Shown one piece after another: positions 24,516 to 27,500 of a stretch of 64,000 nucleotides of DNA. The stretch spans positions 3,232,001 to 3,296,000 of the forward strand of contig CBDASK010000003.1 of NCBI GenBank assembly GCA_965199495.1. Direction: 5' to 3'. The stretch comes from Abditibacterium sp. (GTDB lineage: Bacteria > Armatimonadota > Abditibacteriia > Abditibacteriales > Abditibacteriaceae). The notes beneath the pieces are model-generated. The model searched no databases. It saw nothing but the letters and a program-made list of their open reading frames with translations, and was not told the origin of the DNA. Position numbers and translations under genes: made by a program. Position 1 is the first letter of the stretch, and each line of letters opens with the position of its first letter.

Positions 24516-27500
24516 TTACGCGCTCGCCAACTGCCGCAGCACGTATTGCAAGATGCCGCCGTGCAGATAATAATCGACTTCAATCGGCGTATCAATGCGC
24601 ACGCGGACGGGCACATCTTCGCTGTTGCCATCAGCGCGATGAATCGTTAATGTCGCTTGCATTTGCGGCGATAATTCTTCGATGCCGGTGATGTCGAATG
24701 TTTCCGTTCCGTCCAAACCTAAAGTTTGGCCGCTTGTGCCTTCGAGGAATTGCAGCGGCAACACGCCCATGCCAACCAAATTGGAGCGATGAATCCTTTC
24801 GTAGGAAGCAGCCACGACGGCTTTGACGCCCAGCAAACTGGTGCCTTTGGCCGCCCAATCGCGCGAACTGCCGGTGCCATATTCCTGACCGGCGATAATC
24901 ACGAGCGGCATGCCCGCTGCCAGATATTTCTCCGAAGCATCGAAAATCGCCATCTGCTCGCCGTCGGGCTGGTGAATCGTCACGCCGCCTTCGACGCCGG
25001 GCACCATCAGGTTTTTGATGCGCACGTTGGCGAAAGTGCCGCGCGTCATCACGCGGTCGTTGCCGCGTCGCGAGCCATACGAGTTGAAGTCCACGATGTC
25101 CACGCCATTTTCCTGCAAATAACGTCCGGCGGGCGAACTCGGTTTAATCGCACCGGCGGGCGAAATGTGATCGGTCGTGACGGAATCACCGAAAATTCCC
25201 AACGGGCGCGCGCCGATAATATCAGAACTTGTGCCCGCGTTCATGCCGAAATCGGTGAAAAACGGCGGCTCCTGAATGTAGGTCGAACTCTCGTCCCACG
25301 CGTAAACTTCGCCGGTCGGCGCCTCAACTTCATTCCACAACGGACTCACGTTCTCGAAGCCAGAATAGTTGCGGCTGAACGAATCGGCATCGAACGCGCC
25401 GCCCAAAACGTCGGCGATTTCGGCGCCGCTCGGCCAAATATCGCGCAAATAAACGTCGTGACCATCTTTCCCCTGACCAATCGGCTCGGTTTCGGGCTGC
25501 CAATCCACGCGGCCCGCGAGCGCAAACGCGACAACGAGCGGCGGCGACATCAAGAAGTTCGCTTTTACGGCTTGATGCACACGCGCCTCAAAGTTGCGAT
25601 TGCCGCTCAAAACCGACGCGACGACCAAATCGAATTCGTTGATCGCTTCTTCGATGTTCGGGTCGAGCGGGCCAGAGTTGCCGATGCAATTATGAACCGC
25701 CACGCCGCCCGCGACAAACGAATGGTATTCGTCAACCGTGAGGTCGAAAACCGCGCGCAGACCGGCTTCGCGCCGGTCAATCACGCCCAGCGCGAACGCC
25801 GGAACTTCGAGCGATTCTTTGCTCACGCAATAACGTTTAGCGGTATTTTGCCCGCTCGCTTCGAGTGGCGCGAACCAATCGCGCACGCCCAACTGCTCGA
25901 AGAGTTCGACGGGCGACGGAAAGCCGCACGCGTCGCGGTGCAGCGGCTGGAATGCGCGCGCGCCTTGTTGTGGCAAACGAGTAAATCGGTCGTGCCCGTG
26001 CAAAAGCGAATAATGCGGAAAAACGGCGCTTTCGCGTTCGAGCAGTTGCGTTTGCGCCTGAGCGCGCGCCGTTGCAAACGAAAGTTCAGGCGAATGCGCG
26101 TGAATGGTTTCCAGCGCGTTCGCCATTTTCAATCGTTGCGCGCCGATATTTTTCACCGTACGCCAGTAAACCGCCGCCGCGCTCGCGCACAGCGTTTTGT
26201 TGATGCAATAGCGATAACCGACGTTTTCGATAAACGACAATCCGTCGGCTAATTGCAAGCGAACTTCGGTGCGCGCCTCGCCGCTTTGCGCCGCCGCATA
26301 CGACGTGGCTGCACATCGCGTCGGATAAGCGCGAATTGTCGCGCCCGCCGTGTTGACGCCGCAACGTTCCAGCAAGCGCAGCATCTGCGCGAAAACTTCG
26401 CGTTGCGTCTCGACGTGGCTGCTAAGCGCGCTCTGCGAAAACGCCGGATGCGTCAAAGTCGCGTTGCTCTCGCGCGCGCTGAGACGATGCAGCGCGGGCG
26501 CGTGGCCATCAGCGCCCCAGGCGCCACCCAAGAACTCGCGCACAATGGCGACTGGACACGCGTCGTCCAACACAAACGCGGGCAAAGTCGCGCTTTGCTC
26601 GATGCGTTTGCCAACGCGCACGCCTTCTAATTTTGCGATGTTCGCCGTCAAATCGGCGGGCAACACAATGCTCCATTTACGCTCGTCGTAGGCGTTGGCG
26701 ACGGGCCGTTTGGCCGTGAGCAATGCAATGTCGTTCAACACCATTTCGCGGTCGAGCTTTTGCCCGACATTGACGCGACCCTGACCCAATTCGCTAATCG
26801 AACCGTCGTGCAATAGATGACCAATGAGACGCGCCATCGCCAATGCTTGCGCGCGCTGCGTTTCCATATTGAAACGCAACTCGCCGATTTGCAAAACGTA
26901 GTCGGCTTCATCGGCGCCGATTTCATCGAGCGGCGCTTCCAATCCGACAATCGCGCGGTCTTTGCCGATCTGCAACGCGTCGGCGCGCACCCAGCGCCCG
27001 TCTTCGCACAGAATTTGGTGATCGGGCGTGCAAACCAATTCGCGCCCGTCCTGCAAAATCAGCGAAACGCAAGGCCGCACGCCGTTGAACATCGCCGCGC
27101 TCTGAGCAGCCACGCCGAGCTTGCCCTGCGCCGGAGCCAAAACTCGCGCGCCGCCTTTTTCATCGAACGATTCGATGGCGCGGCTCAAACCGTCGGCGCC
27201 CAAGACCGGCGTGCCCGCCGCGATGCAGGTCGTGCATCCGTAGCCGACGGTGTAAAAACCCAAATCATCCAATGATTTCTGCAAGCCGGTTTTTTCCAGA
27301 TAATCCGAAACCACGCGCGAACCGGGCGCGAGCGAAGTTTTTACCGTCGGCCCGACTTCGAGGCCGTATTCTAACGCTTTTTTGGCGACCAAACCGGCGG
27401 CAATCATCACGCTGGGATTTGACGTATTTGTGCAACTGGTAATCGCCGCGATAACTACGTCGCCGCTCCGCAACGTCGCCGGACGAACCGGATATTCGGC

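Follow-up and report, generated by a model that had tools for sequence, protein, structure and literature searches.

In the window analysed here, a stretch of 64,000 nucleotides from an Abditibacterium sp. genome (GenBank assembly GCA_965199495.1, contig CBDASK010000003.1, positions 3,232,001 to 3,296,000), the gene for aconitase A (acnA) is interrupted by an intein that, judged by sequence alignment, parts the last two ligands of the enzyme's [4Fe-4S] cluster, with the third ligand serving also as the +1 nucleophile of the splicing reaction. From its motifs, its predicted fold and its distribution across genomes, we consider it probable that the element is selfish and still mobile, i.e., a class 1 intein with a LAGLIDADG homing endonuclease that belongs to a single allelic family and occupies a constant site in acnA.

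The initial annotation had placed an intein at 25689..27227, and its coordinates, its length of 513 amino acids (aa), the 1467-aa precursor and the 954-aa spliced product (a computed length) all proved exact. Within the open reading frame (ORF) the intein takes up residues 565-1077. The parts of the precursor are as follows, with counts referring to 73 aligned copies of the intein:

24516..28919, minus strand: acnA precursor ORF, 1467 aa, consisting of N-extein, intein and C-extein; matches NF009520
27228..28919, minus strand: N-extein, 564 aa, ending GYGCTT; aligned to human IRP1
27432..27434, minus strand: first cluster-ligand Cys, in ITSCTN, ORF residue 496, equivalent to IRP1 Cys437 by alignment
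27234..27236, minus strand: Cys-3, the second cluster ligand, equivalent to IRP1 Cys503 by alignment; forms C-T-T-C with Cys1
25689..27227, minus strand: intein, 513 aa, a HINT domain split by a predicted LAGLIDADG endonuclease plus helical extension
27225..27227, minus strand: Cys1, first splicing nucleophile (Cys in 73/73)
27221..27227, minus strand: 7-nucleotide word TGCATCG at the 5' end of the intein, repeated at 25682-25688, the start of the C-extein
27018..27029, minus strand: block B, T-P-D-H (T67 and H70 each in 73/73)
26793..26834, minus strand: first LAGLIDADG helix, with the motif LIGHLLHDG (D141 in 73/73)
26496..26543, minus strand: second LAGLIDADG helix (D240 in 72/73, G241 in 73/73)
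25848..26252, minus strand: conserved helical stretch that follows the endonuclease core, intein residues 326-460
25689..25757, minus strand: blocks F and G, VFDL ... VHN (D495 in 73/73, H512 in 69/73, N513 in 73/73)
24516..25688, minus strand: C-extein, 390 aa plus stop codon, beginning CIGNSG
25686..25688, minus strand: Cys+1, second splicing nucleophile and third cluster ligand, equivalent to IRP1 Cys506

The identity of the host gene follows from profile searches (NF009520, 1344 bits against a cut-off of 905; TIGR01341, 1292 against 945), and both Pfam aconitase domains match the precursor ORF. Residues C496, C562 and C1078 of this ORF align with the ligand positions of IRP1, whose [4Fe-4S] ligands are Cys437, Cys503 and Cys506 according to PMC7181819. 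Thr-1, the last residue of the N-extein, aligns to chain position 504 of the human IRP1 structure 2b3x; assuming that the 888-residue 2b3x chain lacks just the first residue of the full-length protein, Cys-3 would correspond to Cys503 and Cys+1 to Cys506. The earlier placement of the insertion within the cluster-ligand CxxC of AcnA agrees with both the 2b3x alignment and this ligand assignment. In the whole 4.81-Mb genome (3 contigs, 95% complete) neither a second AcnA nor an AcnB was found, and one further aconitase-family ORF, of 486 aa, is taken as a putative LeuC. With no other aconitase in this 95%-complete genome, the cell would presumably depend on splicing of the intein. A search for relics of an aconitase tail behind acnA, in which the end of the gene was compared with the complete genome by tblastn and blastn, found none.

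The residues that characterize class 1 inteins are all in place (C1, TxxH, the block F Asp, the penultimate His, the terminal N513 and C+1), as had been claimed for each of them; H512 is replaced by Ser in four of the 73 copies. With the intein alone as query, the Pfam family Intein_splicing (PF14890) reaches 36.3 bits (cut-off 35.8), and with the whole protein 32.0; TIGR01443 (intein C-terminus) scores 25-29 bits against a cut-off of 15.6, and TIGR01445 (intein N-terminus) 17.8 bits, under its cut-off of 24.5. An AlphaFold model of the intein is confident (predicted local distance difference test, pLDDT, 92; predicted template modelling score, pTM, 0.92) and places LAGLIDADG helices at intein residues 125-141 and 226-240; both motifs keep their Asp (D141 and D240), as the initial annotation had stated. 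Searched with Foldseek, the model matches I-DmoI (TMt 0.56-0.62), I-Tsp061I, PI-SceI and PI-PfuI. The helical extension at residues 326-460, folded alone, yields a model that is not confident (pLDDT 65.6). Taken together, motifs and predicted fold indicate that the element is a complete class 1 intein with a two-motif LAGLIDADG domain.

This intein is not peculiar to the window. A query with the intein only retrieved 793 protein clusters at E <= 0.001 (8000 scored candidates), and all 120 matches listed carry an aconitase domain, with inteins 59-89% identical to the window copy. The database search for acnA insertions at the same site, which had been proposed as a check on novelty, removed any claim to uniqueness: the insertion site is identical in 120/120 of the matches listed (112 by pattern, 8 by eye), and the intein measures 513-517 aa in the 112 pattern-parsed proteins. 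Source names among the matches listed include Pyrinomonadaceae, Blastocatellia, Aridibacter, Ktedonobacterales and Chloroflexota, and genome records with the intein also include metagenome-assembled genomes (MAGs) named 'Proteobacteria bacterium' and 'uncultured Abditibacterium sp.'; at least four phyla are represented among the hosts. Of 254 candidate stretches from metagenome contigs, 169 were confirmed, and 80 were retained. The locus set used for alignment comprised the window and L025-L109 (86 sequences), from which 73 could be parsed with both junctions; among the 13 others, 11 are cut by contig ends and two (L062 and L108) are full-length matches that fail the junction pattern. These 73 copies are all free of internal stops and all occupy the same site.

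Within the genus, presence of the intein is sporadic. We searched 61 genomes and found the full intein in 2 of 13 from the genus (G000 and G003) and in none of 48 other relatives; the five remaining hits in these genomes match different inteins, and only weakly. Eleven of the 13 genomes from the genus yielded an AcnA gene, and nine of these 11 genes are intein-less with an uninterrupted motif, including alleles at 95% and 90% identity in the N-extein. Similarly, in the family of one Pyrinomonadaceae MAG (G061), 4 of 151 genomes carry the intein. The AcnA intein is common in soil bacteria, and its presence is patchy. The samples with intein-bearing alleles also contain contigs of low depth from which exactly 1539 bases are missing; these contigs are diverged and are therefore intein-less alleles of other organisms. 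As a separate observation, the 7-base direct repeat TGCATCG brackets the intein in 38 of the 73 copies. Precise deletion of the DNA could be promoted by such a repeat, which would help to explain why intein-less alleles are frequent.

Movement of the intein independent of its host gene is visible at several scales. On the tree of exteins from the genus, alleles with the intein are interleaved with those that lack it. The extein DNA of two metagenome acnA genes, L067 and L107, is 99.2% and 98.3% identical, against only 64% for the inteins: the first 60 bases of the two inteins are 100% identical, after which there is a sharp boundary. (In this pair, L067:2501-4027 versus L107:2501-4033, the L067 copy has lost conserved motifs of the helical extension.) Converse pairs also occur, in which exteins are 55% and inteins 74% identical. 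The comparison of intein and extein trees that had been proposed beforehand was run over 54 taxa and led to mutual rejection: extein data reject the intein tree (difference in log-likelihood 2009), and intein data reject the extein tree (difference in log-likelihood 717, p = 0.0009 in the approximately unbiased test, with 1000 resamplings, a number that drew the program's warning of too few).

That warning is one of several points that count against a mobile, selfish element. The intein tree of the genus differs from the extein tree in detail and yet keeps its two main clades. Identities of inteins and exteins are correlated (r = 0.83 across 105 proteins and r = 0.67 across 1431 pairs), and much of the descent is therefore vertical. 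A co-conversion tract, sought against the intein-less alleles of G011 (the nearest, at 87% DNA identity) and G004 (84%), was not visible, these alleles being too diverged to show one. In addition, the intein has no match among the Pfam LAGLIDADG families, not even at E <= 10, and for this reason the assignment of the endonuclease rests on the motifs and the predicted fold; related inteins in PolB proteins do match PF14528. Finally, purifying selection on the whole intein nearly matches that on the enzyme, a pattern that would also fit a benefit to the host.

The estimates behind this last point bear as well on whether the endonuclease is maintained. Between the window and its closest relative at the DNA level (L032), the ratio of nonsynonymous to synonymous substitution rates (dN/dS) is 0.112 in the exteins, 0.161 in the intein and 0.145 in the middle, endonuclease part, and for this middle part it reaches 0.20-0.25 in three more distant pairs. 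Values this low in the middle part argue that the endonuclease has been maintained.

If the family's chemistry applies, the 1467-aa precursor would be translated whole, a thioester would form between Cys1 and Thr-1, the N-extein would be transferred to Cys+1, and cyclization of Asn513 would free the intein, such that a normal peptide bond forms and a 954-aa apo-AcnA is left with its C-T-T-C intact. Only then would the spliced enzyme acquire its [4Fe-4S] cluster. The freed intein, in turn, may home by cutting an intein-less acnA at the DNA that encodes GCTTCIGNSG, and be copied in by repair. The choice of site would be accounted for by the fact that this is the gene's most invariant stretch and supplies an obligatory Cys at +1. 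The position of the insertion is explicable without any regulatory purpose, and redox sensitivity of splicing, if there is any, would be a by-product. Because its distribution is sporadic and it moves horizontally, a selfish element is favoured over a fixed regulator.

The principal alternative is that splicing is conditional and adaptive, with active aconitase being released only under reducing, iron-replete conditions; we regard this as unlikely. Its appeal lies in the cysteines. The initial annotation had pointed to a CxxC formed by Cys-3 and Cys1, which is indeed present in the window as C-T-T/C (slash at the splice point), and the Cys-3/Cys1 and Cys1/Cys+1 arrangements recur in all 73 parsed copies, at a junction that reads GC[T/M]T followed by Cys1. 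Several ways of gating can be imagined, each of them improbable: a disulfide between Cys-3 and Cys1 or between Cys1 and Cys+1, or a decoy triad, completed by Cys1, that binds metal or a cluster. Gating would matter in this genome given that it has a sole aconitase, and both the further invariant cysteines C53, C66 and C289 and the purifying selection on the whole intein fit such a function. However, the enzyme itself fixes Cys-3 and Cys+1 and splicing fixes Cys1, so that the conservation of these cysteines is uninformative as to a switch. Furthermore, nine of 11 AcnA genes in the genus manage without the intein, and the intein behaves like a parasite in that it spreads horizontally and gives way to divergent alleles: a parasite that chooses its site by the conservation of the target fits this patchy, horizontal distribution. 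Sensitivity of splicing to redox conditions in vitro is much more likely than adaptive gating, and would alone be no proof of adaptation.

Apart from the question of a switch, the family has its own set of conserved cysteines besides Cys1: C53, C66 and C289 occur in 73/73 copies, C224 in 72/73 and C467 in 71/73. C66 directly precedes block B, and at the positions of C53 and C66 the RecA mini-intein has Val and Ala.

Splicing in the iron-sulfur field has been linked to stress before, in that stress-sensitive splicing has been proposed for the mycobacterial SufB intein. That case resembles the present one in its iron-sulfur setting and differs in its host, an assembly scaffold, whereas AcnA is an enzyme that uses the cluster. 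A direct precedent for redox-gated splicing, according to PMC3922620 and PMC10663303, is the intein in MoaA of Pyrococcus abyssi, in which a native 'redox trap' between Cys-3 of the N-extein and Cys1 has been described and its disulfide control measured. As in the AcnA intein, these two residues form a C-x-x-C, and MoaA is an enzyme inactivated by oxygen (PMC10663303); the two inteins differ in host, in domain of life and in intein lineage. A second case of the geometry lies in the same genome as the window. Inteins of the NF038136 (Rv2578c) family and that of the genome's spore-photoproduct-lyase (SPL) family gene are inserted directly before the last Cys of the radical-SAM motif CX3CX2C, and the SPL-family junctions (C-A-Y/C ... 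HN/C-Y-V) reproduce the Cys-3/Cys1/Cys+1 geometry of the AcnA intein. The N-terminus of the AcnA intein matches NF038136 at E 4.4e-6, and its similarity to the SPL-family intein is generic only (25% over 108 aa, E 0.018); the latter differs also in being split, with an opposite-strand HNH-like ORF between its halves.

One could read these cases jointly, as a functional class of post-translational checkpoints defined by insertion directly ahead of the final Cys in a C-x-x-C motif of iron-sulfur ligands (AcnA, the SPL-family gene, possibly MoaA), in which Cys1 would replace the missing ligand, and a disulfide, metal or cluster would keep splicing on hold until conditions in the cell are reducing and iron-replete. 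We are doubtful that such a class exists, and equally doubtful of the mechanism that it would employ. If this were true, the bacterium's only aconitase, and hence its tricarboxylic acid (TCA) cycle, would be gated by splicing.

The SPL-family locus merits description in its own right. At G000:C3:3722018-3724101 (L116, L115) there is a fractured radical-SAM gene of this family: a first ORF ends in the N-terminal part of an intein, a second begins with its C-terminal part (..THN/CYV..), and between them a 277-aa Cys-rich, HNH-like ORF lies on the opposite strand. By its sequence organization, the locus resembles a split intein whose halves flank a free-standing endonuclease gene. The genome is rich in inteins generally, with eight intein C-terminal motifs above cut-off; other hosts are DnaX, DnaE, a C-5 DNA methylase, GyrB, a class II ribonucleotide reductase (two inteins) and the SPL-family gene, and further intein sites lie on G000:C3 at 4708432, 3579549, 4273370, 4092556 and 1532246.

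To return to a selfish element that is still mobile, mobility is the part of this account that would be lost if the intein were a relic, with a dead endonuclease and an intein kept in place since imprecise loss at a cluster ligand would kill the enzyme. The lack of a match to any Pfam LAGLIDADG family would suit a relic, as would third-position GC content equal to that of the host and the host-specific words that the window copy has accumulated. Contradicting it are the dN/dS of 0.15-0.25 in the middle domain, the retention of both catalytic Asp residues, the two divergent intein alleles in one host gene background (L067 and L107), the incongruence of intein and extein trees, and the patchy occurrence at the level of species, all of which make an immobile relic very improbable.

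An assembly artefact or a pseudogene has next to no likelihood and is refuted by a 1945-base contig of a public run (possibly the source sample of the window assembly) that bridges both junctions with 0 differences, together with 73 intact copies elsewhere and a reading frame that is open throughout. Sequencing support of this kind had been set beforehand as a check on the insertion, and a contig from a second study also spans both junctions, at about 88% identity. No RNA dataset was present among the listed sequencing runs containing the locus.

What kind of mobile intein has come to reside in acnA can be seen from its relatives. A search of 1.84 billion representatives with the intein returned 1098 proteins at E <= 0.001, of which 357 were at E <= 1e-30. 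Among 28 long non-AcnA relatives that were scanned, picked for full-length match from the best 150, 17 are Rpb2/RpoB, 8 are PolB, one is a ribonucleotide reductase and two are without a Pfam hit, and these share 29-37% identity with the AcnA intein over nearly the full 513 aa. Relatives in Rpb2 and PolB place the AcnA intein in a large, known kind of full-length intein, in an unusual host. Its architecture, in which a two-motif LAGLIDADG domain is set into a HINT domain, is that of TliVMA (7qss), PI-PfuI (1dq3), PI-SceI (1vde) and PI-TkoII (2cw7). Against such full-length inteins, the whole model gives Foldseek E-values from 5.7e-15 (TliVMA) to 2.9e-8 and low whole-chain TM-scores of 0.25-0.31, a consequence of the different placement of the domains. 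The AcnA intein differs in its host, an iron-sulfur enzyme of the TCA cycle and not a protein of replication or transcription. The closest solved splicing domain is that of the Mycobacterium tuberculosis RecA mini-intein (2in0 and others; Z 22.3, root-mean-square deviation 2.0, 31% identity over 136 aa, profile E 3.4e-12), whose solved chains of 139-168 residues comprise the splicing domain only and whose host again differs from AcnA.

A TCA-cycle host is atypical, as had been supposed: According to Novikova 2016, 61.5% of bacterial intein hosts belong to COG category L and 21.7% to category F, and neither the main text nor the supplement of that study mentions aconitase. The impression that no aconitase intein had been described holds for the literature searched and fails for the databases. 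Our literature search, which left InBase and subscription papers outside its scope, found no described aconitase intein, and the AcnA intein is apparently undescribed in print; yet with 793 clusters it is not rare, and two of the 120 matches listed bear the name 'aconitase A/intein/homing endonuclease' from the Joint Genome Institute (JGI). Nor did we find literature on Abditibacterium inteins or on inteins at radical-SAM iron-sulfur cluster insertion sites.

An iron-sulfur enzyme of central metabolism thus joins a list of intein hosts that is dominated by proteins of replication and nucleotide metabolism. With hundreds of variants and intein-free alleles in sister species, this is a natural, abundant family in which to study whether redox or metal state gates splicing through a CxxC at the splice junction. 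It also offers a clean system for following the homing cycle in uncultured soil bacteria, in which presence/absence polymorphism, allele replacement and spread across phyla are all visible. For annotation, the consequence is that an 'AcnA' of 1400-1500 aa is to be read as enzyme plus intein, and that absence of the intein from a sister species is no functional difference.

How long the intein has resided in this lineage is partly answered by its composition. Long residence had been proposed from host-like codon style and from three copies of the word CGTGGCT, and the copies are confirmed at 26304, 26414 and 27108. GC content at third codon positions is equal in intein and exteins (0.690 vs 0.696), and CGTGGCT is absent from 7 related inteins, three of them of the same genus; the absence of host words from related inteins fits some residence time in the lineage, though nine intein-less AcnA genes out of 11 in the genus speak against a long one. 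The word itself is abundant throughout: the window has 66 copies where 8.4 are expected, an excess of about 8-fold, and there are 4533 copies on the chromosome (0.96 per kb), even along its length and without strand skew. An extended word with CGTGGCT as its core, CG[CGA]CGTGGCTGC, has 1323 copies. Three copies in 1539 bases are no excess over the density of the genome (Poisson P of about 0.19), and what they show is host-like composition and nothing more. In its density and lack of skew, CGTGGCT recalls words of the DNA-uptake type rather than Chi or KOPS.

The surroundings of the gene add a few minor observations. Long antisense ORFs within acnA (e.g., 24726-26252) have no family match and resemble the shadow frames of GC-rich DNA. 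The genes upstream of acnA, at 28971-29720 and 29832-30899 of the window, encode a DUF1963 protein and a DDE transposase of an insertion sequence (IS) element. Right after the acnA stop codon, at 24466-24503, there is a 38-base palindrome, 95% self-complementary, that is probably the terminator hairpin of acnA.

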